64,000 nt of DNA from Candidatus Binatia bacterium (lineage in GTDB: Bacteria; Desulfobacterota; Binatia; Bin18). A program made the position numbers and the translations under genes. The stretch spans positions 5,203,823 to 5,267,822 of the forward strand of contig OZ246887.1 in NCBI GenBank assembly GCA_965231765.1, written 5' to 3'. Below, in pieces: positions 24,117 through 46,176 of the stretch. Below the pieces are notes generated by a model. It ran no database searches and was not told the origin of the DNA. It worked only from the letters and a program-made list of their open reading frames with translations. Every line of letters starts with the position of its first letter. Position 1 is the stretch's first letter.

Positions 24117-24131
24117 TGAGAACGTTTCCCA

Positions 24132-26660: not shown

Positions 26661-26686
26661 CATGAAATTTTTGAGCTGACAACTGA

Positions 26687-27559
26687 GTGACTATGGAACT
26701 CTCACGCGAGCGACTCATTTTGTATACTGGGGCAGGATTTCTGGGTGGGCTGGCCGGTTGGGCAGCCGCAGACCCATTGGCAAGTCTCGGCAATGTCTAC
26801 GTTCGGGCTCTTGCCCTGGGAGCTGTCATCGGGGTGTTTATTGGTGCGTTTATTGCCTCTATTGAGGGGCTCAGTCGCGGCCACAAAAACCAGATCATGC
26901 AGGGTCTGCAACTCGGTGGGCTAGCTGGTTTGATTGGTGGTGGGACTGGGCTGTTGATGGGCGAACTGGTGTTTGGCCTATTCGGAGGACTGGGCGGCCG
27001 GATTATTGGCTGGGGCATATTTGGTTTGATTGCCGGACTGGGCGTTGGCTGGGTTGGCCGTTCGGTTGCCCGGATGCGGAATGGCATGATTGGTGGAGCA
27101 ATCGGCGGAGCGACTGGTGGAGCACTGTACCAGATTGTGACAGGCTTATTACCTCAGACCGCAGGGCGTGGCCTTGCGCTTGCGCTGCTCGGGGCGATGA
27201 TTGGTTTGTGGATTGGCCTGGTCGGAGAAATCCTCAAGCGAGGCTGGTTTATGGTCATTCGTTCCCAGAGCCGGAATGCCAGAGAAGGCAAAGAATATCC
27301 ACTGGTGAAGGCCAAAACCACGATCGGTCGGGCTGAGGAGAGTGATGTCGGGCTGTTCGGGGATCGCTCAATCTCGGATATGCACGCCGTTGTTGAGCGT
27401 CAGAAAGGGAAATTCCTGCTGGCTCGTGGGCAAGGCATAGTCAAGGTCAATCAGTCGTCAGTGACCCAGCCGGTCCAGCTCAAGAATGGAGACCGAGTTG
27501 AGGTCGGGGGAACACTCCTCCTGTTTCGTGATCGCGCGGCTGTCCCTGAAGAGGCATAA
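26687..27559 (+). CDS. polytopic glycine-zipper membrane protein with C-terminal FHA domain
   Basis: Four or five Gly-rich TM segments (GxxxG repeats). The C-terminal FHA reads TIGRAEESDVGLFGDRSISDMHAVV...NGDRVEVGGTLLLF. Confidence 0.7.
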   Translation: MTMELSRERLILYTGAGFLGGLAGWAAADPLASLGNVYVRALALGAVIGVFIGAFIASIEGLSRGHKNQIMQGLQLGGLAGLIGGGTGLLMGELVFGLFGGLGGRIIGWGIFGLIAGLGVGWVGRSVARMRNGMIGGAIGGATGGALYQIVTGLLPQTAGRGLALALLGAMIGLWIGLVGEILKRGWFMVIRSQSRNAREGKEYPLVKAKTTIGRAEESDVGLFGDRSISDMHAVVERQKGKFLLARGQGIVKVNQSSVTQPVQLKNGDRVEVGGTLLLFRDRAAVPEEA

Positions 27560-27605
27560 GAAGCATACGGGACCGAGACGTCAACACACAGAAAAGTGAA
27601 GCTGT

Positions 27606-29168
27606 ATGGGAAAGCATAACTATTTTTATCAATATTGCATTGCCAGTCTCTCGTTTGTCGCGTGCGTGGCCGTCCAGACGTTGGCCTGGGCGGTAGACAC
27701 TGCGGTGGTGTCCCTGACCAATCCACAGCTGGAGACTTTTTCAAATGGCGGTGCAGTTGGCTTGTATTTTAGTGTGACCGACACCCGCGGACAGCCCGTC
27801 GGACAGCTCAGCCTAGACCAGGTGCAAATTCTCGAAGACGGCCAGATAGCAAAAGTCATTGATTTCCGAGGTGAAGAACAGGGACGACCGGTCGATATCG
27901 TGGTTGTCTTTGATATCACCGAGAGTATGGGACCCTTTATCGACGGCATGAAAGAGGCGACAAATGCCTTTGCCGATGGGCTATCGAAAGCCAACCGCGA
28001 TTATCGTTTGGGCCTGGTGACCTTTGAGGATTATGTCACTCGTGATGAGAAGGTGTTTACCCGGAGCGCGACAGAATTCAAAAGCTGGATTGGAGCCTTG
28101 CAGGCAGTTGGCGGCGGGGACATTCCAGAGAACTCGCTCGACGCGTTGATGATCGCCAGCCGTTTTCCTTTTCGGCCAGATGCCCAGGCCGTCGTCATCC
28201 TCATCACCGATGCGCCCAATCATTCTAAAGGGGATGGCTCGGAGAAGAATAATCCGTATGGACATGAGATTAGCCAGGTTTCCGCAGGCGAAGTGGTAGA
28301 GGAACTGAAACGGGCGAATCTGAGCGTGTTTGCAATCACCCCGCCTCCGTTTGTGGCACCCGACCTGCACAGAATGGCCAAAGAAACCGGAGGCAAGCAC
28401 TACAATATTGTGAGTGAAGGCCGCCGTTTTCCTGAGCTGATCGGCAAAATTGGCCGCTCGCTGGCATCGCAGTATTTCCTGACGTATGAGAGCCCACGGC
28501 CGGTCGAAGATGGGACCAGACGGGAAGTCGTACTCAAAATCAGCCATCCAAACGGTGCCGGTGAGGTACGCAGTAAGTACCAGCTGCGCGGAATTGGCGG
28601 CGGTGCCCGAGCTGTCGTGTCGAGCTCTGTTGCTGGCGTTGCTCCAGCTGAAAATATGCTCACCTACAGCTGGTGGAATATGCTTGTGCCGCTCTTGTCC
28701 GGAGCGGGACTCCTCCTGTTGGCGCGGGTGCGGCTGAGTGAACTACCGGCTGATGTCATGAGACGTCTCAAAACAGCTTCGAGCGCAGTCAGTGCTGCTG
28801 CCGGTACAGCCGCCAGCGCGGCTGCCGGCACCGTGGCTGCCGTTAAACCAGATAAACCTGCCGCCTATGCCCGCTTAATCCGTCAAACGCCACTTGACGA
28901 GGTACCGCGCGAGATTGCCTTAACCCGCGAGGAGTTTGTGATTGGGCGTGGTGAAGAGTGTGATATCGTCATTCCCCACACCTCAATTTCGCGTGAGCAT
29001 GCGCGTTTAAAAAAGCTCAAACCTGGCTTTGTGTTGTTTGACCTGAAGAGCAGAAACGGAACCTTTGTGAATGGCCGGAAAGTGGTTGAGAACCTGCTCA
29101 AAGAAGGCATGACGGTCAAGATTGGCGATATTGAGTTTGTCTTTTATGGGGCGAACCCATCGGCCTAA
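27606..29168 (+). CDS. signal peptide / vWA domain / TM / cytoplasmic FHA domain protein
   Basis: Signal peptide. vWA MIDAS VVFDITESM. TM helix WWNMLVPLLSGAGLLLLARV. C-terminal FHA FVIGRGEECDIVIPHTSISREHARL...NGTFVNG. Confidence 0.75.
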   Translation: MGKHNYFYQYCIASLSFVACVAVQTLAWAVDTAVVSLTNPQLETFSNGGAVGLYFSVTDTRGQPVGQLSLDQVQILEDGQIAKVIDFRGEEQGRPVDIVVVFDITESMGPFIDGMKEATNAFADGLSKANRDYRLGLVTFEDYVTRDEKVFTRSATEFKSWIGALQAVGGGDIPENSLDALMIASRFPFRPDAQAVVILITDAPNHSKGDGSEKNNPYGHEISQVSAGEVVEELKRANLSVFAITPPPFVAPDLHRMAKETGGKHYNIVSEGRRFPELIGKIGRSLASQYFLTYESPRPVEDGTRREVVLKISHPNGAGEVRSKYQLRGIGGGARAVVSSSVAGVAPAENMLTYSWWNMLVPLLSGAGLLLLARVRLSELPADVMRRLKTASSAVSAAAGTAASAAAGTVAAVKPDKPAAYARLIRQTPLDEVPREIALTREEFVIGRGEECDIVIPHTSISREHARLKKLKPGFVLFDLKSRNGTFVNGRKVVENLLKEGMTVKIGDIEFVFYGANPSA

Positions 29169-29200
29169 AAGGACACAATGAGCCCCCTTGGCGTCTTTTT

Positions 29201-31276
29201 TTACTGGTACAGCTCTTCACTCTGAACGCCATTATCTGGCACACGAATCTTGGGATATAATGACGGTATACCGTTGCGGCCGAGGAGCAGAAAATCGACC
29301 GGTACAAAAGGCATTGGGACTTCCATTCCGACAAAGGCGCTGCGTTGATCTTTACCAAAGGCCAAACGTGTGCCCAGCACTTCTTTGGGCAGCGTCCCCC
29401 GAACATCAATGCTTGTCCCAGACGTACTTCCGGTCAGATAGGGTAGGGCCCGCCACCCTGCGGAAGTGTGTTTTTCCTGGCTGCTCTTGAGCGTAATATC
29501 GGCCTCTTCTGCCCCGAGAGCCAAACGGGCGAGTTCACGATCGCCATCTTGGCTGGCTCGTTCAAAACCTTTCTCCCGGAAACGCCGCCAAAATTGCTTC
29601 CAGGCGTTTGTTGGCACGCCAAAGACCCTGATACGTGGACCATCATCGGTCTGGATCAGGAGAGAAATCTCTTGATCTGCCAGGATGGTAATCCCGCCCT
29701 CGGCCAGCTCAACATTGTCCCAGTCCCCGTCGAGCAATTCGGTTTTGAGGCTCAAGCCCCGAGGGCCGATCAGGTCGGGATTTTCTTTGAGAAAGGCTTT
29801 GCTGAGTTGGATGCCCTGCGCTTCCCAGCGACTTAAGGCCAGGAGTTGTGGGGCTGCTTCTTGAGCCGCATCGGTATTTGGATAGCGCTCAACCAAGGTC
29901 CGCAGGGCTGTGATTTTCTCCGAGCGATGGGGCGATTGTTTTGCCTGTTCGAGCAAACCTTCGGCCGCCTGTTCTTCGAGCTCTGGGATTTTGTCTTCCT
30001 GTCCAGCGAGTTTATAGTAGTTGATAGCTTGATCGATTTTGCCTTCGCGCTGATACGATTTGGCTAACAGGGGATATACTTCGGGCGTACGTTTTTCGGG
30101 TGGCGTTTTGTGCAGATAGGTCTTGGCTTCCGTAATCACCTCTTCGTGTGATACCGGGTTACTCGTCATCACTTGCCATAATTTACCGCCGAGCTGTACC
30201 GCAGACAGGGCACCAAAGGTTGCGGCCCCGACCAAGCCTTCAGTCGCCACTTGGACTCCAGCCACCACAAAATTATCTTTGACAAACGAGCTGCCAGGCA
30301 TGACATATTTGAAGGTCTCGACTTGATGGTCCCACTCTGCCTGTTTGACTCGCTCGTAGGGGTCCTCCGGTTGTTGTTCTCGGAGCGGTTGGAGCTGCTG
30401 CAAACGGGCTTCGACTTGACGGATACCGGCGTGCGCGTCAGCCGATTCTTCGTCTATCATCAACGCCAGCTGATAGTGAAAATTTGCTCTCCAATAGTCC
30501 TGCTGTGCAAAGGCGGCTTTGGCCTGGGCAAGTTCATCTTTGAGGAGGGCGTTTGTGCGTCGAACTTCGAGTGCCTGGGCTTTTTCCCGCACCTGTGCGG
30601 CACGTTGATCCTGTGGAGCACGTCGCAGAAATTCTTGATACAGCACGAGTGCCTTCCGTTCGCGCGGGGTGGGGGAATCGTCAGCATTGCGCAAAGACGA
30701 GATCACGCCTTGGGCGGAATACGGACTCGGGCTGCGTGGGGTGCCTAAAAACAGACTGCCGACGTCAAATGTTGACAGCACCCAGTTAAAAACGCGGGCG
30801 ACACGTCCGCGTTTTTCCTCTGCGAGCAGTGTATCGGCTCGGACAAGGAGTTCATCCGGCCCAATGTCGAGATCCGCAGCAGTCGGCTGGTCGTGGTTCG
30901 GCTGGCTGTTTTGGGATTCTTGCGGAGCGGCAAGTGCGTGCACATAGGCGGTTAAGCCAGTTGGTTTCTCGCCCTGAAGAATGAGTTGGGCATCATACTC
31001 AGACAGCTCACGAGCATGGGCTTTGACGGCCTCTGGATCTTGCAAATAGGCATCAACAATGGCATTGGCGACTTGTTTGCCGATTGCATCCGGAAAATAA
31101 CGGTCAGCTGGGATGGGTGCTATAAACGGATTATAGCGGGGGAATACATCCGTCAGTTTGGAGAGCAGTGGGTCGGAAAATTCCTGGCCAAACTCTGGGT
31201 CATAGTCCTGAGCGTGGACTGGAGGCAGCAGCAGGACACACAAAAGAATGCCGATAAGGTATTGTGCTCGTTGCAT
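29201..31276 (-). CDS. hypothetical secreted protein with TPR-like helical region
   Basis: 690-aa ORF with an N-terminal signal peptide (MQRAQYLIGILLCVLLLPPVHAQ). No catalytic motif is recognised. The start is taken at the Met before the signal peptide. Confidence 0.5.
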   Translation of the reverse strand: MQRAQYLIGILLCVLLLPPVHAQDYDPEFGQEFSDPLLSKLTDVFPRYNPFIAPIPADRYFPDAIGKQVANAIVDAYLQDPEAVKAHARELSEYDAQLILQGEKPTGLTAYVHALAAPQESQNSQPNHDQPTAADLDIGPDELLVRADTLLAEEKRGRVARVFNWVLSTFDVGSLFLGTPRSPSPYSAQGVISSLRNADDSPTPRERKALVLYQEFLRRAPQDQRAAQVREKAQALEVRRTNALLKDELAQAKAAFAQQDYWRANFHYQLALMIDEESADAHAGIRQVEARLQQLQPLREQQPEDPYERVKQAEWDHQVETFKYVMPGSSFVKDNFVVAGVQVATEGLVGAATFGALSAVQLGGKLWQVMTSNPVSHEEVITEAKTYLHKTPPEKRTPEVYPLLAKSYQREGKIDQAINYYKLAGQEDKIPELEEQAAEGLLEQAKQSPHRSEKITALRTLVERYPNTDAAQEAAPQLLALSRWEAQGIQLSKAFLKENPDLIGPRGLSLKTELLDGDWDNVELAEGGITILADQEISLLIQTDDGPRIRVFGVPTNAWKQFWRRFREKGFERASQDGDRELARLALGAEEADITLKSSQEKHTSAGWRALPYLTGSTSGTSIDVRGTLPKEVLGTRLAFGKDQRSAFVGMEVPMPFVPVDFLLLGRNGIPSLYPKIRVPDNGVQSEELYQ

Positions 31277-31335
31277 AGAGTCAGATCCCCGAGCGTGCAT
31301 GAAACGTAAAAAGACCTGAAAACTTCATCAAAGCT

Positions 31336-32349
31336 TCATCTTCCCAAGCGTCCGATTTTGGCGATATAGGCTTCCAGCGCTTGGAGTTTACCTTTGGCTT
31401 CGAGTTTTTCGATCACGCCGTCTTCTTGGGTGACTTGGGCGTACTGATTCAGGGCGGCTTGGCCTAATTCTTCAAAAACAGTTGGGTTAAAGCTGAGGCT
31501 TTCCGGGTCGTTTTGAGACACATATTCCTCGGCCAAACTGCTATAAAAATCGCCCAATTCTATCCGGTATTGGTAGCGATTTTTGCTCTCTGTATGGGTG
31601 TCGAGCAGTTGCCGGTAAGCCACGATGACGCTCTCATTGCCGTCTTGGATTTGATACCGATTGAGGGTCAGGAAGGTCACTTTGGCCATGTCTAAGCGTT
31701 CGGCTTCTTCAAGGGCGAGCGATTCGTACGGCGTGCCTGCCAATTCTTGGCTGAGGGCACGCCAGGCAACGGCTTGATCGTCTAGGGCTTTGAGGTATTC
31801 GACTGGGGTGCTGGCTGAGAACTGACGCTCGGTCAGCTCTTTGAATTTGGTCAGCGCGGCAACTGATTTTGTGGCTTCGTCCTTTAGACGGTGGTTGGTT
31901 TGGCTGACACGTTCATACTCCTCAAAGGCTTCTTGGTAAGCGTGCAGTCCCTCATAGGCGCGTCCACGCGTATATGCGATCAGGACAGGATACGCGCCTG
32001 GGTGTTTGGACTGATAGTCTTGGAGTCGTTTCAGGGTCGCTTTATGCGCATTTGCGCCAGTCACGTCCTCGGGCAAAGGAAAGCGGTAGGTATCCTTGGT
32101 CGCAACGCGCTGAAATTCGGCGGTGACTTTGAGCAGATCTTCTTCGGTTTCATACTGCGGGTTGCTGTCTGCCGCAGTGTTTTTGGACAGACCTGGGATC
32201 ATGTCGCGTATCTGTGAAGTGGTTGAGGAAACGCGTGGGCCAGTTGCGGTTGGTTGTGAACGAAAAAGGGAACACGCTGATAGCAGACAGGCGGAGAGGA
32301 GAAGAACGATGAGAGGCAGGAACGAAAAGGGCGTGTTCTGCATCTGCAT
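31336..32349 (-). CDS. hypothetical lipoprotein (TPR-like)
   Basis: Lipobox-like LLSAC|S after a hydrophobic N-terminus. Helical repeat-like body. The start is ambiguous between Met codons at 32367, 32349 and 32343. Confidence 0.5.
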   Translation of the reverse strand: MQMQNTPFSFLPLIVLLLSACLLSACSLFRSQPTATGPRVSSTTSQIRDMIPGLSKNTAADSNPQYETEEDLLKVTAEFQRVATKDTYRFPLPEDVTGANAHKATLKRLQDYQSKHPGAYPVLIAYTRGRAYEGLHAYQEAFEEYERVSQTNHRLKDEATKSVAALTKFKELTERQFSASTPVEYLKALDDQAVAWRALSQELAGTPYESLALEEAERLDMAKVTFLTLNRYQIQDGNESVIVAYRQLLDTHTESKNRYQYRIELGDFYSSLAEEYVSQNDPESLSFNPTVFEELGQAALNQYAQVTQEDGVIEKLEAKGKLQALEAYIAKIGRLGR

Positions 32350-32506
32350 AATCCCACGATATGACATAGCTGATCGGGCTCAGGCGTGCGTAATAGTACC
32401 CACCTTAATGTGAGCGAGACAGGGTGTCAAACCGGGTTTTTGGGGTTTCTTGGCTTGGGCTTGCCAGCAGTCATTACTTCCAGATAATATCCGACACGAT
32501 GCTAGT

Positions 32507-32591
32507 GCCGGGGTGGTGGAATTGGCAGACACACAGGACTTAAAATCCTGTGAGCTTTTTGCTCGTACGGGTTCAAGTCCCGTCCCCGGCA
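32507..32591 (+). tRNA. tRNA-Leu (anticodon UAA), type II with long variable arm
   Basis: Acceptor stem GCCGGGG/CCCCGGC with discriminator A. Anticodon stem CAGGA/TCCTG with loop CUUAAAA. Long variable arm GAGCTTTTTGCTC. T-arm GGGTTCAAGTCCC. Length 85 nt. Confidence 0.8.
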
Positions 32592-32986
32592 TAAGAAAAT
32601 TAACTACTTATGCCCCCTCTCAGCTGCGGAGGCGCGCGAAATTCCGGTCAAGGACACGATCCGAGTGTCGGCTGCACCCGGGACAGCGGAACGGCGCTGG
32701 GCGACCGCGACTTGGACACCACATGCTGCACGCTGAGGCAAACTCTGTGTGGCTCCGGGCCCGGACCGGGTTAGCGGACAGGCTCAAGCGCCAGGCCGAG
32801 GACTTTGCGTTTCATCTGCTGGTTGACTTGGAGGAAGCCCGGGCCGAGGGCCTGACCGACGTGGCTGTGATCGCGGAGCGCTATGGCGTCCCGCGTGAGA
32901 TGGTGCTGCTGGGGCGGGTGGCGTGAGAGAGAACACTCATACCCCACTTCACGCAGGAGCACGGATTACATAACGAGGAACCCTTA

Positions 32987-33850
32987 ATGGTAGACCGTAA
33001 AGCCGATACCGAGCCTCCGCAATTCACGAGGGCTGGCATCGAAAGAGGCATCACCAAGTTAAACCGTCGCATTAAAGACCTGAAAGGTCTCGATCCGAGC
33101 GAAGTCCATCAGTACGCTCCCTCAGTTCAAGTCGTCGAGTCGAACATCCGCGCAGCTATTCATGATGTATTTGGCAAGAATTCCCTGGAGTCTAAGCTGA
33201 AAGGGCTTTCTCTAATACTGTCGCCCGACGGATACAACAATAAGAAAAGTGACGCTGAGCGCCGAGAGGAGTCCTCCAAAATACTCGATCGCGCAGTCAC
33301 GATACTGGAGGGACATATCTTGCGTCTTAAAGAGAAACGCGAAGACCTGGAAGCAGATCAGGGGACTGAGCAGTCGGGTACACTTTCTTCGGACAAGTCA
33401 TCTACGAACAGCCGCCGAGTCTTCGTGGTCCACGGGCGGGACGTGGCAGCGAAGGAGGAAGTTCGCAGGCTTCTAACTCAGTTGAAGCTTGAGCCCGTGA
33501 TCCTTGGTGAACAGCCAGACCAGGGTCAGACGGTCATTGAGAAGTTCGAGGGGAACGCGGACGTGGGCTTCGCGGTGGTCCTTTTGACGCCCGACGACAA
33601 GGGTGGACTGGCTGACTCATCTAATGAGCCTCAGCGACGAGCGCGCCAGAATGTGATCTTCGAACTCGGTTTCTTCGTTGGCAAGCTCGGCAGAAAGAAG
33701 GTCTGCACCCTGTACAAGGGCAATGTCGAGATCATGAGCGATTATCAGGGTGTCATATATGTTCCCATGGATGATGAGGGCTGGCGATTGAATCTCGCAC
33801 AGGAGATTAAGAGCGCTGGCATCAATGTGGATCTGAATCACCTATGCTAG
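32987..33850 (+). CDS. coiled-coil + TIR-like (PF10137-type, predicted nucleotide-binding TIR-like) domain protein; candidate defence effector
   Basis: The C-terminal ~140 aa ([64 protein letters not shown]...[28 protein letters not shown]) match, from memory, the conserved TIR-like family motif set ([35 protein letters not shown]). The N-terminal ~150 aa are charged, helical and coiled-coil-like. Confidence 0.6.
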
Positions 33851-33934
33851 CGCGGTGTTTCATGTCGGCAAGGATGATCGGGTGCTCGGCCTTGTGGCTG
33901 GGCCGCTGACGGTGGGTAAGGAGAACGCATCACC

Positions 33935-34684
33935 ATGAGATCTCGGCTTTGGCTTTCCATTTGTGTCGCCTTAGTGTGGGCCTGGGTGGCGCCACAGCCA
34001 GCAGCGGCGCAAGATGCTGAGGTCGCGGACTGCCTCAAGACCGATCTGGCGCCCGCAGCGAAGGTCGCCGCGTGCCGAGCCGCCGCGGAAAACGGAGACG
34101 CGGATGCGCAGCTCAGGCTCGGTGTCATGTACGACAACGGCCAGGGCGTGGCGCAGGACTATGCGGAGGCGATGACGTGGTTCCGCCGGGCCGCTGCGCA
34201 GGGAAATGCAGGTGCGCAGGTCGCTCTCGGCGTCATGTACGCCGGCGGTCAGGGCGTGCCACAGGACTATGCGGAGGCGATGACATGGTATCGCCGGGCG
34301 GCTGCGCAGGGAAATGCAGGTGCGCAGGTCAATCTTGGCGTCATGTACAGTAAGGGCCGGGGCGTGGCGCAGGACCATGCGGAGGCGCTGGTGTGGTATC
34401 GCCGGGCGGCTGCGCAGGACTATGGGCTTGCGCAGTACAATCTCGGCGTCATGTACAGTAAGGGCCGGGGCGTGGCGCAGGATTATACGCTGGCCCATAT
34501 GTGGTTCAATCTCGCCAGCGCAAGTGGCTACAAGGATGCGTCTGAGGCCCGCAATGAGATGGCAAAGCGCATGACCCTGGCCCAGATCGCTGAAGCCCAA
34601 CGGTTGGCGCGGGAGTGGACGCAGGCATATACGGTAGGGGGGCAAGTAGTGCCAGCCGGGCCAGGCACGGCTGAACGATTTTAG
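33935..34684 (+). CDS. Sel1-like repeat (SLR) protein, secreted
   Basis: Signal peptide. Five tandem Sel1 repeats (LGVMYxxGxGVxQDYAEAMTWYRRAAAQGNAGAQ). Confidence 0.8.
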   Translation: MRSRLWLSICVALVWAWVAPQPAAAQDAEVADCLKTDLAPAAKVAACRAAAENGDADAQLRLGVMYDNGQGVAQDYAEAMTWFRRAAAQGNAGAQVALGVMYAGGQGVPQDYAEAMTWYRRAAAQGNAGAQVNLGVMYSKGRGVAQDHAEALVWYRRAAAQDYGLAQYNLGVMYSKGRGVAQDYTLAHMWFNLASASGYKDASEARNEMAKRMTLAQIAEAQRLAREWTQAYTVGGQVVPAGPGTAERF

Positions 34685-34895
34685 GGAAAAGGACAGACCG
34701 GCCGACGATTCTTCAGTGCGGAGCTTGGGGGTGGGGCCGAACGGCTGCCAAGTCGCCTTCAAAAAGCGCAGCCGTCATTGCACCTCAATAATCACAAAAT
34801 TCTGGCTTGCCTCTTGCCACTCGACCGTCACTGTTGTGTCCGGCTCGGGGAAGTCAGGCAGATTGTACACGCCACTCGCACCTGTCAGACGAACT
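34671..34895. repeat. direct repeat copy A (~97% identical to 41870-42095)
   Basis: A ~225-bp block is almost identical to copy B, with about six mismatches. Weaker homology extends a further ~100 bp upstream into the Sel1 gene 3' end. Confidence 0.7.
34780..34895 (-). pseudogene. remnant 3' end of an LRR/PPC surface-protein gene (paralog of 41981..44773)
   Basis: The reverse strand encodes ...LTGASGVYNLPDFPEPDTTVTVEWQEASQNFVIIEVQ*, identical to the last 37 aa of the 930-aa LRR protein. It has no upstream coding continuation. Confidence 0.6.
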
Positions 34896-34899
34896 GCTG

Positions 34900-37824
34900 C
34901 ATGAGCTTTCGCAGCACAGTCTTCAGATTCAGAGCCGCTATTTCCCCGAGGACAGCGAGTTATGGGTTGACCGCCAACTTGACCGGAACCTGGAAGAGGC
35001 TGTCGGCCGGGACGTCGTTTTTGTCGTTGCCGAGTCGGGTCTCGGCAAAAGCATAGCGTGTCACAAACGCCTGACGGCGCATGTTGAGATGGGAGGGTTT
35101 GGGCTGGTCATTCCGCATCAAATCATTGCTGACTCCCTGTCACTTGAGCAAGCGGTCGGTACGACGCTACGACAGCTCCATCCTTCTCTTGCCTCCGACG
35201 CGGGGAGCGAGGCGCGCGCGCTGGCGTCGGAACGCAAACCATTGTTGATGGTCGTGGAGGATATCAACAAATTTGGACAGCCAATCTCGCTCATCGAACG
35301 GCTGGCGAGCTGGAGCGCGCAGCGGGCAGAACGCAATCAGGTGGCCAGCTGGCAGATTCTTTGTCCGGTTTGGCCTCGGATACTCACAGCGCTTGGTGAT
35401 CAAGCCCGCAAGAAGATCAATGAGTTAGTGCTCACGGCATCTTCCTTCACACCAGAGGAAGGCGCTGCTGCCGTAAACCGCCGTCGCCACCAGGCAGGGA
35501 TTCCAATAACGCAGCTCGACGCAGAAGCGGTGGCGTCGGCTCTGGGTTACGATCCCTTTCTTATCGCCCTACAAGACCTTACGGCAACGCCAGACCCCAA
35601 CCATGTCATTCAAGCCTTTATCAAAGGCAGTCTCGAACGGCTCGCCGAAAGTCGCGGCGAGTTTACAGCGGGGGAATATCGAGAGGGATTGAGGCATCTC
35701 GCTGCCACAATGCTTGAACGGCGACGCCTTGATCTTTCTATGACTGACGTTGCCGCCTAGTTTGAAGACACACCCAGCACCGTAAACATGCTCCGGCATA
35801 TCGTCCGTTTCGGTGAGATCATTCGCGTTACTGGATCTGCCTCGAACGAGCGCTTGGCATTTCGCCATGACCGCGTTCTTGACTGGCTTCTTGCCGATGC
35901 GGCGGCAGACCTCATGCGCCATGGTGCCATCCCCCAGACCGTGCTGACGGAACCGTATTTTGCAGAAATCATCGGTGCTGCACTGGTCCGTGATGCCATC
36001 CCACTTGCAACGGTTGAACAGGTAAGAGTCACTAATCCCCTCGCGCTGTTCTGCGCAATGTCCGTGTTCGGCGAGCCGTGATCTGCACTGTGCCGTCCTC
36101 AAAGCTGCCGAGGCGTGGCTGGACGACGAGACAACACACACACCACACCACGAGAATCTTCGTTGGGCCGCGCGCCGTGTTCTCTCGGAATGTGATGCGT
36201 CCTATGTCATTTCGCTCGTCAAGCGCTTTCGTGAAGAACGAAACGATCGGTGGGGGCTACGCGCCCGTTTCCGCAATGGAGATTTTGGGGCGGGCCTCGT
36301 ACTTTGCAGTCTGTACCAGCCTGGGTTCGGCGTAGTCGGGCATGTGGAATTAATCGATCATGTTCAGCGGCGCCGAGGCAGAGCGCTTGTTCGCACGCTC
36401 AATGCTTTTCTGCGTCACGATCAACTCCCAGCTGCCGGCAGGTCTGGCGCTCTGAGGCTAGCCGGCTACCTCGCTGACCCGACGCTAGCCAGCGCAATTA
36501 AAACGTCCTGGTTGGCCGATACCGGCCGGGATGAGAGGCTCACGGATTATTTATGGGCTAGCGCGCAATGCGGTGGCGAGGATGCAGCCGGACTGTTGGC
36601 ACCGGTCTGCGATAAGTGGGCCGCGCTGCCCGATAAAGCAGACAGAGAGCATTCAGTCTCCTCCCGTAATAATCTCGCAGCGCATGAAATTCGATGGGCG
36701 TTTCGGGACAGAGTCCCTGAGTCGGCAATCCACTACTTCATCGAACAGGCAAAAACATCTGCATTGCGATGGCCGATCACCTTTATGCTGCACGGTATTG
36801 ATCACCCTGACGCGGTTGAGTTTGTTACTCGAGAACTCGCTGCAACTGAAAACTTTTCGCCGTTCGCGATGAACGCAGAAGATGAATGGAAGCGGCAGCA
36901 AGAAAAAACGGGCCGTGCGATGTCGGACGCTTCACGGAACCGGCTGCGTGAATTATGGACGAACAAACAGAATGGAAAACATCTGAGGAATTGGGCTACT
37001 GGTGGCAGGTAGGGCGGTATATCTGGTCGGATGAGCTGACTGAAAGTCTTGATGAGGCGCTAGGCCGGCGGAGCGACCGGGTGGAACGAGCTTGGGACTT
37101 CAATAATGAGATCTCGGCTGACTGTATTCTATCCGAGCGCCTGGTGGAGCTTCCAACGCCGACCGTGGAAGGATTACTGATCAAGCACTGGGATCATTTG
37201 CGTTTTTCATTTTACTATGTGCAAGCGGCTCTTTACACCGTGACTCCCCGACTCATGGAGATGGTCGCGCAAACGGTTGCCAGATGCCCGAACCCCAAAT
37301 CTATGTTTGAGCTCGCAACCAGGCATTTTGGAATCAGGACTAAAGAGCGAACGGGGATCGTGCGCATTGCGCAGCTTCAAGCCCTGTTGCCTTACCTTGA
37401 TCATCTTAGCGATCTGGATGTCCTAAACCTTTGGGAGACGTGCAACGATCATGGCTGGTTTGAATGGCGCCGTCAGCACCTCGATTCGCGTTTAAGGATT
37501 GGCAGGGCAAAAATATATGAAAATGACAACCGAGCAATGGCAGATCTTGACGACATGTTTCCCAAAGGGCTCTGGACTAATCATTGGGCTGACGAGTTTC
37601 TCAAAACCGGTATCTCCGTTGATCACATGATGGAAGTTGTACAGAACTGGTTGAGCCGACAAACAGACATTAGGGCTCTAACGATGGCAGCAGCCATTGT
37701 CGCCCATGCTGGTCAGCGTCGCCATATAAGTATCTTGTCCAGCCATAATATTGAGGCGACAGATCAGACTGGGCCCATCATTGAAGATACGCTTTTTGCG
37801 CTGAAACGGCGGTCTCCAAATTAG
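34900..37824 (+). pseudogene. frameshift-fragmented large P-loop NTPase (STAND/AAA-like) with helical-repeat C-terminal region
   Basis: Consecutive same-strand ORFs (34807-35760, 35788-36081, 36078-36335, 36344-37012, 36955-37824) run frame 1, then 1, 3, 2, 1 with overlaps. The first carries Walker A VVAESGLGKS and Walker B LLMVVEDINKF. The later pieces are alpha-helical. This is consistent with one ~950-aa gene broken by frameshifts. Confidence 0.4.
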
Positions 37825-38263
37825 GAGCAGCCCCCATGGCAGAAACACCCCTCCCTGAACTTCAGCCGGCTTCCGATAACCCATGGTACAGACTCGCTAC
37901 CGCTGGAGAAGATCACACGGACAACATGCGCCGTTGGAATGGCTACATGCGCCATCTGGTTGGGGAGGAGGAGGCGGCCAATTTGAAGCGGGACGATGGA
38001 AAGAATTGCTTCCCGGCAGATCGGCAGAGGCTTCGAGATCGGTGTTTTCAACGGACGCGGTGTACATTGGCGCGGAATGGACGACGGTGGCACCCAGGAA
38101 CGCGACCTTGTCCAAAGTACCGAGGCTGGGCAAAGCTGCGCGCCTTTGACTATCCCTTATGTCAGCAGTGTCCTTGAAAGCCTCGCGGCCAGCTATGACC
38201 GCGAGGCGAAGAGGGCAGATGACAGAGTGGAAATCAGAAAGAGGCTGGGACGTCGAACAAAAC

Positions 38264-38683
38264 TCATGCTCTTCCCCGACCTTTCAGCCCGTGTGGGGCG
38301 AGGATCGGCACGGAAAACACCAGAGCCAGGGTCAGCAGGTCCTCGTCACCCGTCACCAGGGCATCAGCCTGGCCCACCAGCGCCAGTTCGAGAAAAGGAC
38401 GGTCGAACGGGTCACGACACGCCGGGACGGCCGACGGTTCCGACACGCTGACCGTCTCGCACCAGGGCAGATAGTCGGCCAACAGATCTTCTCGCTCATC
38501 GTCGGTTAGCTGGAACTTGGCGTAGGACAGCACCCGAATCAATTCCGCCGTCGTCTCGCGGCTGGCCAGCGGCACAACGGCTCGCGCCTGCCACGCGTCG
38601 CGCAGCCAAGACACCGTTCCTGACGGGAACAGCAAGGCCGACACCAGGACATTGGTATCGAGCACCAACCGCCGAAAACTCAT
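38264..38683 (-). CDS. vapC: PIN-domain (VapC-type) toxin
   Basis: LVLDTNVLVSALL (first acidic residue), then a conserved ...TGDEDLL... acidic cluster. The start overlaps the antitoxin stop (ATGA). Confidence 0.7.
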   Translation of the reverse strand: MSFRRLVLDTNVLVSALLFPSGTVSWLRDAWQARAVVPLASRETTAELIRVLSYAKFQLTDDEREDLLADYLPWCETVSVSEPSAVPACRDPFDRPFLELALVGQADALVTGDEDLLTLALVFSVPILAPHGLKGRGRA

Positions 38684-38904
38684 TGAGCCTGGCGTGCCCA
38701 CGCCACGGCTTCTGCCACGTCCGTTTCGGACAAGCCCAGCTCGGCCAGTTTCGCCCGCACGGCATTAGCTCGGGTGAGCCGCACAGGGGTCAGCACGAGC
38801 CGCCCATTTTCGTGGGTGACATCGAAGTACTCTGTCCCCTGGAAGGCGGACACCAGCGCTTTCGGCAGGGTGAGTTGGTTCTTGGAAGTCAGTTTGGCAA
38901 GCAT
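38680..38904 (-). CDS. vapB: AbrB/MazE/SpoVT-family antitoxin
   Basis: 74 aa with a swapped-hairpin motif (LTSKNQLTLPKALV). It lies immediately upstream of the PIN gene and overlaps it. Confidence 0.65.
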   Translation of the reverse strand: MLAKLTSKNQLTLPKALVSAFQGTEYFDVTHENGRLVLTPVRLTRANAVRAKLAELGLSETDVAEAVAWARQAQ

Positions 38905-39210
38905 GGAGACATCTTCCTTATTCTGTTGTAAGGAAACAAGGATAAAGAAGATCCTTTCTCAGGGCAAGAGGAGGGACGACCGTCGCCTCACTTGATCCGA
39001 CCGTCGTTTTTGCTGTCTTTTGTCACTGGAGGGATCTCACTCGGCCCAGCCTGGTGGACGAACTGAGGGCGGGAGCAGGGCAGACTTGGTTTCTGCTCTC
39101 TGCGGCCGCTCCCTTAATCATCGGTTCCCTCTTGATGAATAGTATACATATAACTAAACTTTTTCTATCTGTGCCAAGGAGAAGGGAAAGGAGGGGAGGG
39201 GAGGATGCTT

Positions 39211-39590
39211 TGACGCAAATTGTCGCTGAGGGAAAATGGGGAAGGGTCGAGTGGGCGACAGACCGAAACGGGAATATGCCCGCGCGGTCTTATTATTCGG
39301 ACCTTCCTGATAGCGACAAAGCAAAAATCCTCGCTCTTTTCAACTTTTTGCGATTTCTTCAAAACCGGGAGAAACTCAAAAAACTAGGCAGTAAGGCAAA
39401 AGGGAAAGACTCAGAATTGTGGGAATTCAAGAGCTTTCAACATCGTTTTCTCGGTGATTATAGGCCACACAGCCGCTTTATTATCGCGCGTGCGCTTCAG
39501 AAAAAAAGCGATAACTTGCCAACATCTGATATTGCACGAGCCATTCGTATTCTCCCAGAAAACGACCAGCGAGAGGAAGGAATGCCATGA
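39211..39590 (+). CDS. higB: HigB/RelE-superfamily (Gp49-like) toxin
   Basis: ...GKDSELWEFKSFQHRFLGDYRPHSRFIIARALQKK... resembles the Gp49/HigB family. The ORF opens at 39054; the start is placed at TTG 39211 after GGAGGGGAGGGGAGG, and is uncertain. The stop overlaps the downstream HTH gene (ATGA). Confidence 0.5.
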
Positions 39591-39940
39591 ATCGCCCCTC
39601 CACGGACTATGAACTTTTTGAGCAATCCTCAGATCACAACAGACGGCTTCTGCGAGAGGAAGAGTTGATCCTGGAGGTGACAGAAGCGGTCAGCGCGGTG
39701 ATGCAGGAAGAAGGCATCTCTAAAGCCCGGCTCGCAAAGCGCCTGGGGAAAACCAAAGGATTCATTTCCCAGCTCTTGTCGGGCGGACGGAATCTGACCC
39801 TGCGGACGCTCGCTGGCCTTGTTGATGCGTTGGGATATCGGGTCACCATTACGGTTTCCAAGAATCGTGATAGCAGGTCTGTCGGCAGCGAGTCTCCTGA
39901 CCTCAGAGTCATCAATATCGAATCTTGGTCTTCCCCCTAG
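39587..39940 (+). CDS. higA: HTH (XRE/HigA-like) antitoxin with short C-terminal extension
   Basis: HTH reads ISKARLAKRLGKTKGFISQLLSGGRNLTLRTLAGLVDALG, and a ~25-aa tail follows. Its position after the toxin matches a HigBA-type reversed TA arrangement. Confidence 0.6.
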   Translation: MNRPSTDYELFEQSSDHNRRLLREEELILEVTEAVSAVMQEEGISKARLAKRLGKTKGFISQLLSGGRNLTLRTLAGLVDALGYRVTITVSKNRDSRSVGSESPDLRVINIESWSSP

Positions 39941-40017
39941 ACCCAGCCGCCGGTTTGGAGGGAACCCACTGTCAGTATTCCTCTCCAAACCTCAGTTAGT
40001 GACTATGGAGCAGCAGC

Positions 40018-40494
40018 ATGAGCAAGGCAGCTGATGGCCTGAAACGATTGATTGCGGAGGTCGAGATTGAAGGGGTGCGCCTCGTTGAAGCAAACGCGGA
40101 AACGAAGGTGCGGTCGCCGGAAGACACTGGCGCTGTTGATCTCTTGGTCAATCGAACGGCCGGGATTAGCGAGCGTCAAGAAAACGGGATGTTTTTTGTT
40201 GTGGCAACCATCAGGGCTCAACTTGTCTCTGAAGAGGCGAAGGAGGAGCCTCTGGTCTCGATCGAGACGAGTTTTGAACTCCAGTATCGCCTCCCTGAAG
40301 GATTGCGCGTCGATCCTCAAGCTCTGACAACCTTTGCCGAGACGAACGGGATCTATAATGCCTGGCCCTATTGGCGTGAGTTTGTGCAAAGCACGTTGGC
40401 CCGGATGGGACTCCCGCCAGTCGTGCTCCCGTTGTTACGCGCTCGGGAGGTGAAGGAGAAGACAGAAGCCGAGAAGGCAGAGGGGGTGGTATGA
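40018..40494 (+). CDS. SecB-like chaperone (TAC-system-type)
   Basis: 158 aa. Blocks align to E. coli SecB: VEANAET vs FEAPNAP, FFVVATIRAQLVSEE vs YEVVLRVTVTASLGEE, and AWPYWREFVQSTLARMGLPPVVLPLL vs [26 protein letters not shown]. Confidence 0.55.
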   Translation: MSKAADGLKRLIAEVEIEGVRLVEANAETKVRSPEDTGAVDLLVNRTAGISERQENGMFFVVATIRAQLVSEEAKEEPLVSIETSFELQYRLPEGLRVDPQALTTFAETNGIYNAWPYWREFVQSTLARMGLPPVVLPLLRAREVKEKTEAEKAEGVV

Positions 40495-41306
40495 AGTCAG
40501 ACCTCATTAGCAAAGCGACCCGGAACGCGTTTCGAGAAACTCTTGTGAATTACTCTCTTCGTCAGATAGACACGATTTTTGATGGGGCAGGACTGAGTCC
40601 CAAATTGGATCACAATCCGAGCGTACCAGGCCAACGGCGCACCTTGGTCGAGCAGTATTACGCTGGTATCGACTTTCGCTCTCCGAGCGATATCGACCAA
40701 CTCCTCTCTGCTTACGGAGAGCTAGTATTGCAAATGGGAGGCTCCGACGAACCGCTCTGCAGAGATCTTCTGCAACGCATGGAACAGGATGGGTACTCCT
40801 ATCAAGCAGGGAGCTTCATTCAGCTGCCAAACAGACAACAACCTCTCGTCGCCACTATCCAGTCTTACGCGGTCGCTCTTGATCTCGAAGGACTGCAAAG
40901 CCAAATCCATCGTCTTACTCAGGCTGCTGAAAATGATCCCCCTCTAGCCGTGGGAACAGCAAAGGAGATGGTGGAGACAATCTGCAAGACTATCCTTGAA
41001 AAAAGAGGTGTATCTACAGATGACAAAGAACTGCCAAAGCTTGTCCGTGCGACAGCTAAAGAACTCGCCCTACTGCCGGGGACTGTTCCCGACAATGCGA
41101 AAGGTTCAGAGGCCATTCGTCGGCTGCTCAGCAACTTGAACCAAGTCGCCCAGGGGATGGCGGAGCTCCGTAACCTCTATGGCACCGATCATGGTCGCGC
41201 TGGACGTGTCAAGGGTATACAGCCTCGACACGCTAGGCTCGCCGTCGGAGCGGCGACAACCCTGGCCACTTTCTTGCTGGAAACACATCTGGAGCGCAGT
41301 CCGTAG
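40491..41306 (+). CDS. HEPN-superfamily / Abi_C-like (abortive-infection C-terminal domain) protein
   Basis: The start overlaps the SecB-like stop (ATGA). The C-terminal ELRNLYGTDHGRAG carries an Rx4-6H HEPN motif in the position typical of Abi_C-family proteins. Confidence 0.55.
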   Translation: MKSDLISKATRNAFRETLVNYSLRQIDTIFDGAGLSPKLDHNPSVPGQRRTLVEQYYAGIDFRSPSDIDQLLSAYGELVLQMGGSDEPLCRDLLQRMEQDGYSYQAGSFIQLPNRQQPLVATIQSYAVALDLEGLQSQIHRLTQAAENDPPLAVGTAKEMVETICKTILEKRGVSTDDKELPKLVRATAKELALLPGTVPDNAKGSEAIRRLLSNLNQVAQGMAELRNLYGTDHGRAGRVKGIQPRHARLAVGAATTLATFLLETHLERSP

Positions 41307-41869
41307 GTGCCAGCCTCATGGTTCGCAGACAAGGACTCAAATGCATAACCGACGTGCTGGCCTGGATCAAAGCGCAGGGTGCCAGCTATCAGACCCGGAT
41401 GAACGCCGTGTTCCGGGCCTTCCAGGAAGCCACCAGATAATCGGGGGTCCGGAGATTCTCCTACACTGACGAGGGTAGACCCCTCACAGTCGAGCGAAGA
41501 GCCGGGGCAACAGAGACAAAAAAGGAGGAGGAAATCATACCCAGATGCAACATCTTATTGCGTCGTCTAGGAGACAGGTTTGGGCCGGTCTTCTCGGCTC
41601 GTTCTCCTCTGCTCTTGTCGTTGTTAAAATCCTCGGGTTTGGAAAGCAGGTTACAATAACCGGGAAAGTAGACTCCGTTGACCTGATATCTATTTATCTG
41701 AAGGAATGTGAATTGGTCGATGAGTAGATTTCGCGCAATCCTGCCGGCAGGCCACAGGCAAACGCCTCCCACTTCCAAGCTTGACACTTTGTCCCTTACC
41801 AGACGGAGCGGGTGGCGCGGCCTTATGTGGGCGGAGGAAAATCAGGGACTTACAGAGCCAGTCGAGCCC

Positions 41870-42095
41870 GGCGGGGCTGGACGATTTTAGAGAAAAGGAC
41901 AGATCGGCCGACGATTCTTCAGTGCGGAGCTTGGGGGTAGGGCCGAACGGCTGCCAAGTTGTCTTCAAAAAGCGCAGCCGTCATTGCACCTCAATAATCA
42001 CAAAATTCTGGCTTGCCTCTTGCCACTCGACCGTCACTGTTGTGTCCGGCTCGGGGAAGTCAGGCAGATCGTACACGCCACTCGCGCCCGTCAGA
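41870..42095. repeat. direct repeat copy B (partner of 34671-34895)
   Basis: Covers the last ~115 bp of the LRR gene plus ~110 bp of downstream sequence. Upstream of it (41700-41890) lies a degenerate remnant resembling the Sel1 gene C-terminus (...EPVEPGGAGRF* vs ...VVPAGPGTAERF*). Confidence 0.7.
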
Positions 42096-44773: not shown

Positions 44774-45104
44774 TTCCGCACACAGCGGTCAAGAACCGCA
44801 CCTCCGTCTGTGTCTCCACAAAGAAAACGGCGCCGCCCGCCCGACCCCACCCGTTCGCGCTCAGTCGGGCGCGAGGGAAGCCACACCGCCTAGTCCGTCC
44901 ATGGCACGAGACGACCCGCTGATCCCCGACGCGGCGACGTGGCAGAAATTGCAGCGGCGTCGAAGCCGGCCGCCTTTACTTCTCCCGCTCCACTCTCCTC
45001 CCTTTTTCCCTCTGTCCATCTTGTCTCTACATCGGGGAGGTAGTACAGGTGAGGGTAGGGTATGCATTGTGTGACACAACAATGCCACTCTGCAGGAAGA
45101 AACA

Positions 45105-45509
45105 GTGATGAAAACAGTTCAGAGTTTCGTGACGGCCGGGGCGCTAGTGGCTTGGGCGACCCTCTTCAACGTCGGAGCAGCGCCAGGAGAAGCTGCGGCT
45201 GTGCTGGAGGAAAGAGAGCTGGTGACCAGGCAGCAATGCCGCGTGGACGAGCATGCCCCTTTGCTGCTGGTCCACGGACGATCCCGTCATTCCTCCCCCC
45301 ATCCTCCCCCCTATTACCCGCTCCCGCCCTATCCTCCGCTTGTCTATCCCCCGTCTTCCCCCTACTATTCCCCGTACTCCGCTGCCGCCATCTGTCGCAA
45401 CCAACTCCGGTTCTGTCACCTGAAGGTCGCCATGCCAGTCGGCGCGCCGTGTGTTTGTGCTGCGCCGGTTGGCGGGGTGTGGTTCAGTGGTTGGGTGACG
45501 TTCTATTAG
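45105..45509 (+). CDS. small secreted Pro/Tyr-rich hypothetical protein
   Basis: Signal-peptide-like N-terminus (MMKTVQSFVTAGALVAWATLFNVGAAPGEA) followed by PHPPPYYPLPPYPPLVYPPSSPYYSPY. It lies in a gene-poor GC-rich stretch. Weak. Confidence 0.3.
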   Translation: MMKTVQSFVTAGALVAWATLFNVGAAPGEAAAVLEERELVTRQQCRVDEHAPLLLVHGRSRHSSPHPPPYYPLPPYPPLVYPPSSPYYSPYSAAAICRNQLRFCHLKVAMPVGAPCVCAAPVGGVWFSGWVTFY

Positions 45510-46176
45510 GCTGAAGCGATATTGAGGGGACCACAGAGCGCACAGCGGCGAGACCTGGTGCTCGCCCGGGGCGCGGCTCCCACCGCGGGGAGCGCGTTCG
45601 ACCTTCCAGAACAGCGTCCCATCCCTGATCCCCCACGCCCGGCCTCCATCCGATCCCTCGTCAACGTCCCCCGGTCCAGCACCGCTCCTGGGCCATATGA
45701 ATTCCTTATCCAAGGAAACGGGAAAGGCCGCCAGAGCTATATCCTACCCAGTATTGGGTCGTTTCCGCGGACCCAGGTTGTCTCCAAAAACGGGGGGTTG
45801 ATGAAATAGTGGAGAACTTTCTTCGGGCTAGGAATTCGTTCTAAAGACCCTCAAATTTCCCCTCCGCGGTCGCACCGCCCCTTCCCCAGGGGAGGACCCG
45901 GGAAGCCTGGCGGTGAGACAGACGACGGCTCTCAGGCCCCGTTCTCCTCGTGGCTCAGCTTGACACACTACAGACGTAAAACTGGCCCCTTTGCGGCCGA
46001 TTTGCCGGGGTTCCTGGCCGATCTGCGCGAATCGCGGGTCAACCGGCCGCAAAGGGGGGGGGCCTGGATGACCGGAGGCGGGCGGAACGGCGAATGGCGT
46101 GGCGATCCCTGCCAGACTTACGGGGTGCCCGCATGTATGCTAGGAGAGGGAGCGCATTGCTGTAAGGAGGTGTCGG

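Follow-up and report, generated by a model that had tools for sequence, protein, structure and literature searches.

A duplicated gene junction marks a chimera of two alternative accessory cassettes at a tRNA-Leu-linked island site

What brings the same convergent gene junction into one locus twice? In the stretch of DNA analysed here, which is 64,000 nt long and is called the window throughout, the 3' end of a Sel1-repeat gene, a spacer and the oppositely oriented 3' end of an LRR gene follow each other at two places about 7.2 kb apart. This had been noticed in the original prediction, and both the double junction and the genes listed between the copies (an NTPase pseudogene and the PIN/MazE, Gp49-like/HTH and 158-aa/Abi_C genes) were found again. 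The explanation offered at that time was a segmental duplication or a recombination-mediated insertion. Comparison with sister loci supports the recombination part of it, as the locus is a recombination product, and speaks against the segmental duplication, as the two copies carry alleles of two haplotypes. The features of the region are given below, where type I and type II designate the two alternative cassettes of the slot.

32506-32592, plus strand: tRNA-Leu(UAA), left anchor of the variable slot (ARAGORN)
32604-34647, plus strand: type I cassette in the window, present in locus L004 and absent from loci L006 and L007 (Pfam, PADLOC)
~32711-32926, plus strand: M78/IrrE-like fragment, type I cassette (Pfam)
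32987-33850, plus strand: CAP12/Pycsar-type TIR protein (PADLOC PDC-S35, 4e-78)
33935-34684, plus strand: Sel1-repeat gene, mostly in the type I cassette, with its end in the common right flank J (Pfam Sel1, 3e-38)
34880-37824, plus strand: NTPase pseudogene, 5'-truncated, starting at about codon 204 of ~1241
38264-38701, minus strand: PIN-domain toxin, type II cassette (Pfam PIN_3, 1.3e-20)
38680-38904, minus strand: AbrB/MazE-type antitoxin, type II cassette (Pfam MazE_antitoxin, 1.4e-3)
39054-39590, plus strand: Gp49/HigB-like ORF, type II cassette (weak Pfam match, start uncertain)
39587-39940, plus strand: HTH_3 protein, type II cassette (Pfam; PADLOC PDC-M64B/C)
40018-40494, plus strand: 158-aa protein, type II cassette
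40491-41306, plus strand: Abi_C/AbiJ-like protein, type II cassette (Pfam Abi_C, 4.4e-27; PADLOC AbiJ, 4e-12, and PD-T4-9_C, 5e-5)
41981-44773, minus strand: intact LRR protein gene, up to 930 aa (Pfam, ORF list)

The LRR protein consists of LRR repeats, a PPC-like region and two copies of a C-terminal domain of ~125 aa, and it has orthologues in six of the related loci (L001-L004, L006 and L007). When the 7-kb segment between the copies was compared with plasmids, only the PIN/MazE pair was matched, on two plasmids at ~71% identity, where the two genes are annotated as a PIN toxin and an AbrB/MazE-family protein; the comparison of the segment with phages gave no matches. Judged by their PADLOC matches, both cargo types look defence-related: the TIR protein corresponds to PDC-S35, a 239-aa gene of the type II loci to PD-T4-5/AbiD and the Abi_C protein to AbiJ.

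The first question concerns the extent of the repeat itself. Repeat searches on the 32-45 kb region and on the whole window returned one long two-copy direct repeat, 34648-34889 (copy A) and 41854-42095 (copy B), with a start-to-start spacing of 7206 nt and 94% ungapped identity (227 of 242 positions match in register, 94-95%). The claim of a long imperfect direct repeat is therefore confirmed, and its details need correction. Copy A had been placed at 34671-34895, which is shifted by 6-7 nt relative to copy B at 41870-42095; the matching range is 34664-34889, and over this range there are 11 mismatches in 226 positions (95%) instead of the six mismatches and ~97% identity that had been reported. 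A perfect block of 107 nt lies at 34757-34863. The left edge of the repeat is rich in mismatches and the right edge is sharp, with no similarity between the copies downstream of it in a local alignment test. Weaker homology had also been proposed upstream of the repeat, but the best local alignment over the 100-700 nt upstream has 11 of 12 identical positions, a value reached by 32-306 of 500 shuffles according to the length compared, and the proposed extension is therefore not significant.

The right flank that is common to both cassette types, which we call J, begins 37 nt before the end of Sel1 and continues through the spacer and the LRR gene. The truly duplicated part of the repeat is shorter than the apparent one: it covers 34648-34879, i.e. 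232 nt with 13 mismatches. The apparent repeat ends with 10 nt (34880-34889) of NTPase sequence, which resembles the LRR gene at 10 of the 12 positions of a 12-nt patch, and what look like copy A mismatches at 34880 and 34883 belong to the NTPase. The two copies are divided as follows.

34648-34879, no strand: copy A of J, 232 nt, carrying type-I-linked alleles
34648-34684: last 37 nt of Sel1 in copy A, including TAG
34685-34774: spacer of copy A, 90 nt
34775-34777, minus strand: orphan LRR stop codon of copy A
34778-34879, minus strand: orphan LRR codons 930-897 of copy A
41854-42085, no strand: copy B of J, contiguous with the intact LRR gene, carrying type-II/L007-linked alleles

Copy A thus holds 34 LRR codons (897-930) and the stop codon on the minus strand, rather than the 37 codons counted earlier, the remainder being microhomology of the NTPase gene. 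A tblastn search aligns the orphan fragment with LRR residues 894-930 (36 of 37 identical) because the microhomology extends the match. Copy B has four private changes at 41862-41891. Its Sel1-like stretch comprises only the last 12 codons before the common TAG, and tblastn detected no Sel1 similarity upstream of it; what had been taken for a decayed C-terminus of Sel1 is the abrupt edge of the common flank J (34 of 37 identical in L006) and not the remnant of a decaying gene. Terminator and promoter consensus sequences were looked for in J and not found, and an exact 40-mer of the J core had zero matches in genome contigs and in metagenome contigs.

What occupies this position in close relatives? 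The related loci all come from ENA metagenome assemblies and were reached through members of protein clusters, exact look-ups of the Sel1, Abi_C and TIR proteins having given no encoding contig. L004 was found through the second member, 97% identical, of the 90% cluster of the window Sel1 protein, and L006 and L007 through cluster members of the window Abi_C and NTPase fragments. L004 lies on a contig of 5.59 Mb and carries, in order, Pkinase, FHA, VWA-FHA, a 691-aa gene, a 343-aa gene, CAP12-TIR and Sel1, which directly adjoins the convergent LRR gene; SBP_bac_3 and a pentapeptide-repeat gene follow. L006, on a contig of 5.60 Mb, has the flank with the 343-aa gene and tRNA-Leu, then a pentapeptide protein, a 141-aa ORF, a 239-aa Abi_2/HEPN-like gene and an intact 1243-aa NTPase gene, after which come a 104-aa ORF, PIN, MazE, HTH, a 158-aa ORF, Abi_C and the LRR gene. 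L007, on a contig of 302 kb, has the layout of L006, and its backbone is almost identical to that of the window. The PIN/MazE pair is present in both L006 and L007, and the TIR and Sel1 genes are absent from these two loci.

Accordingly, the slot between tRNA-Leu and the convergent LRR gene is an island site whose content varies among strains: it can be filled by either of two cargoes, which have both flanks in common. The type I filling (L004) of ~2 kb consists of the M78 fragment, CAP12-TIR and Sel1, and the type II filling (L006, L007) of ~10.7 kb consists of the pentapeptide protein, the Abi_2/HEPN gene with the 1240-aa NTPase, PIN-MazE, the HTH module and Abi_C. The flanks are conserved, the cargo alternates between close relatives and a tRNA gene is adjacent, as is expected of a tRNA-linked slot. 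In a four-way comparison of the window, L004, L007 and L006 the haplotypes part at 32601-32604, 9-12 nt past the 3' end of tRNA-Leu. Their homology resumes at 34648/41854, 37 nt before the stop codon of Sel1. Therefore the right boundary of the supposed insert, between 41853 and 41854, pre-exists in type II and was not made in the lineage of the window.

The window matches both types. Positions 23939-34888 correspond to L004 1-10954 at 97.9% identity, and 41854-45003 to L004 10714-13879; because both alignments cover it, the single L004 junction (10714-10954) matches both copies, and the 6964 bp between the copies are absent from L004. The type I cassette of the window differs from that of L004 by 2-3%. 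Positions 34878-41622 are collinear with the L006 and L007 islands at ~98%, beginning inside the NTPase gene, and L007 matches further at 26458-32603 (L007 1-6146, 99.85%) and at 36015-47019 (99.1%). When related strains are compared for the presence or absence of the 7-kb segment, as had been suggested, L004 has a single junction without it. It would be too simple, however, to call the segment the insert: in L007, the nearest relative, with flanks 99.85-99.9% identical, the 7-kb content is resident in the slot and the Sel1/TIR cassette is the extra. Two other lines of comparison were abandoned. The LRR orthologues of L001-L003 (81-87% nucleotide identity) have different neighbours and their homology ends at the stop codon, which makes them unsuitable as junction evidence. 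An apparent jump in divergence across the insertion (LRR gene 90% and left flank 98% to L004) turned out to be confined to the LRR-repeat region, the background identity between L004 and the window being 97-98% on both sides.

From left to right the window contains tRNA-Leu, the complete type I cassette, positions 1-232 of J, a join, type II sequence from about NTPase codon 204 to Abi_C, the complete J and the LRR gene. Type I and type II sequence are combined here in one chimera, with the join between 34879 and 34880. The join connects approximately LRR codon 897 to approximately NTPase codon 204 inside the 12-nt patch, which has 10 of 12 identities between GCGCCCGTCAGA in the LRR gene and GCACCTGTCAGA in the NTPase gene. 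The patch occupies one feature line.

34878-34889, no strand: breakpoint microhomology, GCACCTGTCAGA in the window as in the NTPase genes of L005, L006 and L007

At the same place the LRR genes of copy B, L004, L006 and L007 read GCGCCCGTCAG[A/G]. The switch lies at the GC common to both sequences (34878-34879), so the exact overlap is 2 nt; the chance of at least 10 identities in a random pair of 12-mers is 3.8e-5. Copy A reads ...CACTC-GCACCTGTCAGA-CGAACTG at the join, and the 12-mer and all sequence to the right of it are those of the NTPase of L005, L006 and L007. The three alignments are as follows.

Copy A: ...CACGCCACTC-GCACCTGTCAGA-CGAACTGCTG...
LRR gene (copy B, L004, L006, L007): ...CACGCCACTC-GCGCCCGTCAG[A/G]-AACGTCTCG...
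NTPase gene (L005, L006, L007): ...GAACAGGA-GCACCTGTCAGA-CGAACTGCTG...

The gene that was truncated at the join is therefore not the one that had been proposed. There is no evidence of a second, paralogous LRR gene. The orphan fragment belongs to the first 232 nt of the common flank and stops at the illegitimate join; it is the NTPase gene that lost ~203 of its ~1241 codons. The AAA-like ORFs at 34807-37824 are one gene split by a stop codon and two frame changes, and their conceptual translation matches, with 100% query coverage, a family of ~1230 aa whose intact homologues have 1230-1243 aa. The best family match (P0199, 1241 aa) is 87% identical. The window NTPase starts at about residue 204-207 and aligns from residue 207 of this protein at 94% identity; therefore ~200 N-terminal codons are missing. 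The locus that encodes P0199, L005, matches window positions 34878-37830 at 97-98%, and this match begins 12 nt inside the apparent repeat. A resolvase adjoins the NTPase gene in L005 only, which is an unrelated context.

The lesions of the NTPase gene also carry information about descent. Across L005, L006 and L007 the nucleotide identity to the window NTPase is 97-98%. The gene is intact in L005 and L006, and the L007 copy keeps the 5' part. A TAG codon (TGG in the others) at 35758-35760 is found only in the window, while a 5-nt deletion at 36078 and a deletion of ~155-166 nt at 36991 are common to the window and L007. Thus the type II part of the window descends from a resident island that had already decayed. 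L007 itself has a private deletion of 174 nt, and the interior of the island is 1.2-1.8% diverged from it, so L007 is a sister and not the parent. For annotation this means that the NTPase should be listed as a pseudogene whose partner gene is gone, and that neither the orphan LRR fragment nor the chimeric ORF 34807-35760 should be called a gene.

If the two copies of J had arisen by duplication in place, they should share the alleles of one genome, except for random changes acquired since. What was found is that over the 232 nt copy B has 4 differences from J of L007 and 14 from J of L004, whereas copy A has 7 differences from L004, 8 from L006 and 13 from copy B, and it has private variants at 34698 and 34864. 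Copy A is type-I-like and copy B is type-II/L007-like; therefore they are allelic versions from different haplotypes that were brought together, not copied in situ. A duplication of the Sel1-LRR pair, followed by deletions that removed most of one LRR gene and one Sel1 copy, would account for the fact that both convergent 3' ends occur twice in equal order and orientation. It would, however, leave the copies differing at 13 of 232 sites in a locus whose flanks are only ~0.1% from L007, and these differences are not random decay, as copy B has mostly type II J alleles and copy A is closer to type I J. No residual LRR or Sel1 similarity extends past the sharp edges, the edge of copy A is a microhomology join to an unrelated gene, and two precisely placed deletions would be needed besides the duplication. 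We consider this course of events highly improbable.

The pairing of the two haplotypes could also have been produced by the assembly, if coexisting type I and type II strains of a metagenome were stitched together by the assembler or by a chimeric read. Several strains of the lineage, with both haplotypes, exist in the sampled metagenomes, and the hybrid is on record in one contig only: the junction occurs in one assembly, the chimeric ORF and the exact window Sel1 protein are each found on a single contig, and a search for a second assembly with the chimeric ORF found none, the related ORFs all having the native NTPase N-terminus. Strain-switch errors, however, occur in kilobases of homology, and this join lies at an imperfect 12-nt microhomology in two unrelated genes; moreover, an assembler would collapse a 232-nt repeat and not create one. 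The private variants of copy A and the 2-3% divergence of the type I cassette from L004 do not fit a simple stitching of the sampled strains either, the type II part is a distinct mosaic that is neither L006 nor L007, and both flanks form one coherent L007-like backbone. An artefact of this kind is therefore unlikely.

Direct repeats around 7 kb of accessory TA/Abi cargo, a target gene that is intact with an orphan 3' end left behind, a nearby tRNA gene and a relative (L004) that resembles an empty site are together what a site-specific integration would be expected to leave. In that case a 7.2-kb element would have integrated into the LRR 3' end and supplied a replacement 3' end, and the repeats would be attL and attR. 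The edges of the segment do not behave as recurring ends of an element. The left edge cuts through the middle of the NTPase, a gene that occupies the slot together with its upstream partner in L006 and L007, and the right edge, between 41853 and 41854, is the ordinary boundary of type II cargo in the same two loci. No integrase or recombinase domain was found by Pfam in the ORFs of the segment (34.8-41.3 kb) or in the larger ORFs on either side of it (20.3-21.6, 22.4-34.7 and 41.9-51.8 kb), and no copy of the tRNA 3' end is present elsewhere in the window. Integration is already contradicted by the arrangement of L006 and L007, and we give it hardly any credence. A related idea was rejected as well. 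The integration of a circle by a Campbell-type crossover in the 107-nt block was at first suggested by the hybrid allele pattern, until the mismatches at 34880 and 34883 proved to be NTPase; with the arrangement of L006 and L007, moreover, no autonomous 7.2-kb element is needed.

How did the two haplotypes come to be joined? The two parental arrangements, the recombinant, the breakpoint at nucleotide level and the differing allelic origin of the copies are direct observations. From these we infer that, following uptake or transfer of DNA, the two haplotypes were joined by homology-facilitated illegitimate recombination (HFIR), an origin of the hybrid that we regard as quite probable. DNA of one haplotype would have recombined with the chromosome of the other; one side would have been resolved by ordinary homologous exchange in the common flank, and the other by an illegitimate join at the imperfect 12-nt microhomology, from the LRR 3' end in the type I right flank to NTPase codon ~204 of type II. 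The stretch of J is present twice because this join fell 232 nt inside the common right flank: copy A is the orphan LRR 3' end that follows the type I cassette, and copy B is the native one before the LRR gene. Three observations are in agreement with HFIR. One boundary lies in extended homology, as 6146 nt of the left flank match L007 at 99.85% (the alternative anchor is the right flank, where J and the LRR gene agree almost completely with L007 from 41892 on). The other boundary is a microhomology join of non-homologous sequences (10 of 12, with the GC overlap). Both parental arrangements exist independently, type I in L004 and type II in L006 and L007.

The evidence from the breakpoint applies equally to an illegitimate recombination in which gene transfer has no direct part, i.e. 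a break or template switch in a cell containing both haplotypes, or a two-step swap combined with a microhomology rearrangement, and the mosaicism of the interior shows that several recombination events have taken place at the locus. However, the haplotypes must still meet in one cell, which itself implies DNA transfer, and more steps are required than in a single event with one-sided homology. It is thus a rather doubtful alternative to HFIR.

With regard to the direction of the HFIR event, the sequence gives arguments on both sides. On the one hand, a type II recipient may have taken up ~2.5 kb of type I DNA, which would have replaced ~2.6 kb of its chromosome. This is favoured by flanks that are L007-like on both sides and L004-like only from 32387: of the 120 variable sites in the 6-kb left flank, 111 have the L007 state in the window, and L004-like states appear at 32387, 32393 and 32601, which places the switch between 32288 and 32387. 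On the other hand, a type II tract of at least 7.2 kb may have entered a type I chromosome, which is favoured by the mosaic interior and by the near-perfect identity to L007 that starts exactly at 41892. From this position, inside copy B, to ~45500 the window is almost identical to L007 (3 mismatches in 42000-45499), and the interior of the island (34880-41891) is a mosaic relative to L006 and L007 and equal to neither. As the interior is 1.2-1.8% from L007, compared with ~0.1% in the flanks, additional recombination events or unsampled parents must be assumed for either direction. A closer type II parent was not found through the members of the Abi_C cluster, one of which (P0322) led to plasmid-like contigs that have only the Abi_C gene in common with the island.

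The arrangement has a predictable consequence. Both copies of J contain the perfect 107-nt block, so a homologous deletion of 7206 bp is expected: RecA-dependent recombination between the copies would remove these 7206 bp, with a clean type I allele as the result. The loss provides a testable instability, and the hybrid could be an unstable intermediate of cassette replacement. Going further, a duplicated flank might be the working intermediate of a two-step exchange of defence cassettes in situations where only one flank can pair. In the first step, one-sided HFIR capture would stack the incoming cassette and a piece of the common flank before the resident one; in the second, RecA-mediated deletion between the flank copies would remove the resident cargo and complete a clean swap of alleles. 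This more general proposal is speculative, with low odds in our own estimation; if it is true, and if stacked intermediates are common at hotspots, it would explain the turnover of defence islands that have no integrase. More immediately, the locus demonstrates that a long direct repeat around accessory genes need not mean an att site or a gene duplication.

Comparison with known systems places the locus among familiar ones. The integrative elements e14 and phage 21 of E. coli duplicate the 3' end of their target gene, icd. The window resembles them in the intact target gene, the orphan 3' fragment at the far end and direct repeats of 100-250 bp; unlike them, it has no integrase, one of its supposed ends is a truncated resident gene, and sister strains have the accessory DNA as native content of the slot.

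The resemblance to HFIR is closer. To our knowledge, a direct repeat that results from a join inside common sequence is not a described feature of HFIR products. In the window the join fell inside sequence common to both partners and yielded the 232-nt direct repeat, and in this respect it differs from HFIR as described. It is alike in that a novel tract is bounded by extended homology at one end and by a join of unrelated sequences over a few nucleotides at the other, and in that foreign cargo is gained beside the anchor while recipient DNA may be lost. The window case is deduced from natural genomes, whereas HFIR is known from experiments. HFIR with joins of 3-10 nt has been reported for S. 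pneumoniae, A. baylyi and P. stutzeri (PMC6382021, with reference to de Vries & Wackernagel 2002, Prudhomme et al. 2002 and Meier & Wackernagel 2003). The exact overlap of 2 nt inside a 10/12 patch stands at the short end of the reported joins.

Finally, the slot has the properties of tRNA-linked hotspots of genomic and defence islands. It starts 9-12 nt past tRNA-Leu, its cargo varies among strains whose flanks are 97.7-99.9% identical, and this cargo includes TA, Abi and TIR genes with PADLOC matches. It differs from such hotspots in that neither cargo type has an integrase or a tRNA-derived repeat, and in that the window contains a partial stack of both cargo types instead of one or the other. 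Both the process and the kind of locus are already known, and this is not a new kind of element. What the window adds is a complete natural set from an uncultured lineage, in which both parental haplotypes and the recombinant are available with a breakpoint at nucleotide level, and thereby a nucleotide-resolved natural case of the reshuffling of integrase-less accessory and defence cargo at a tRNA-linked hotspot.

The window retains, at 34880-37824, a remnant of an NTPase of about 1240 amino acids, which belongs to a family without a Pfam domain; some of the homologues carry HNH domains. The NTPase is intact in two loci, of which L006 is a sister locus with the type II filling of the slot and L005 lies in an unrelated context:

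L006, 2887-7337: intact NTPase with the gene that precedes it
L005, 6636-11080: intact NTPase with the gene that precedes it

In both of these loci the NTPase is preceded by a gene for an Abi_2/HEPN-like protein of 239 amino acids, which is matched by PADLOC as PD-T4-5 (5e-19) and as AbiD. Together the two genes form a candidate defence system, which has hundreds of relatives. In the window, the 276 nt that lie immediately downstream of the PIN gene (37988-38263) match L005 2248-2524 at 89% in inverted orientation, and this counterpart sits several kb upstream of the L005 NTPase.

The Abi_C gene together with 140 nt downstream of it (window 40491-41446) is 97% identical to segments of two contigs, L088 (7423-8378) and L089 (10001-10956), which carry plasmid-like genes (ArdC in L088, ParA/CbiA in L089). 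Because the homology with both contigs begins exactly at the start codon, the gene moves as a module. Between Abi_C and the right flank common to both fillings, L006 contains a 366-nt segment (11133-11498) that is missing from the window and from L007, the nearest relative, and is an indel; an ORF of 182 amino acids in L006 corresponds to one of 60 amino acids where the segment is missing.

Over the LRR-repeat part of the LRR gene (43254-44453), identity to L004, a sister-strain locus with the type I filling, is 70-86%, whereas the DNA around it is 97-98% identical; the window allele is near-identical to that of L007 and nearer to L006 than to L004. This pattern suggests that the allele was replaced or that the repeats diversify rapidly. 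In the linker of the same gene the 18-nt unit CGGGCAGATCGCTCTGGG is present as a tandem duplicate (42391-42426), and an 18-nt gap relative to L004 falls in the same 200-nt bin. Residues ~655-930 of the LRR protein (window 41984-42810) comprise two copies of a C-terminal domain of ~125 amino acids, for which Pfam gives no match; the domain is also found as stand-alone proteins of 170-240 amino acids in many metagenomes and, in L005 (12072-15281), fused to a sulfatase/fn3 protein.

Outside the slot, at 47913-48900, lies a long repeat array whose period is 15 nt and whose GC content is 74%. It encodes the following protein:

48011-49348, minus strand: pentapeptide-repeat protein, 445 amino acids (Pfam, 6e-113)

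Since its identity to the L004 copy is only ~87% and the lengths differ, it is a strain-variable repeat gene. Upstream of the slot lies a cluster of VWA, Ser/Thr kinase-PP2C, Ser/Thr kinase, FHA and VWA-FHA genes (20322-29168), the portion of which from the kinase-PP2C gene onward is shared by L004 and the last part by L007.

A solitary gene with no cyclase nearby stands directly after tRNA-Leu and a fragment of an M78/IrrE-like gene; it encodes a TIR protein of the CAP12/Pycsar type (32987-33850), matched by Pfam at 4e-38 and by PADLOC as PDC-S35 at 4e-78.
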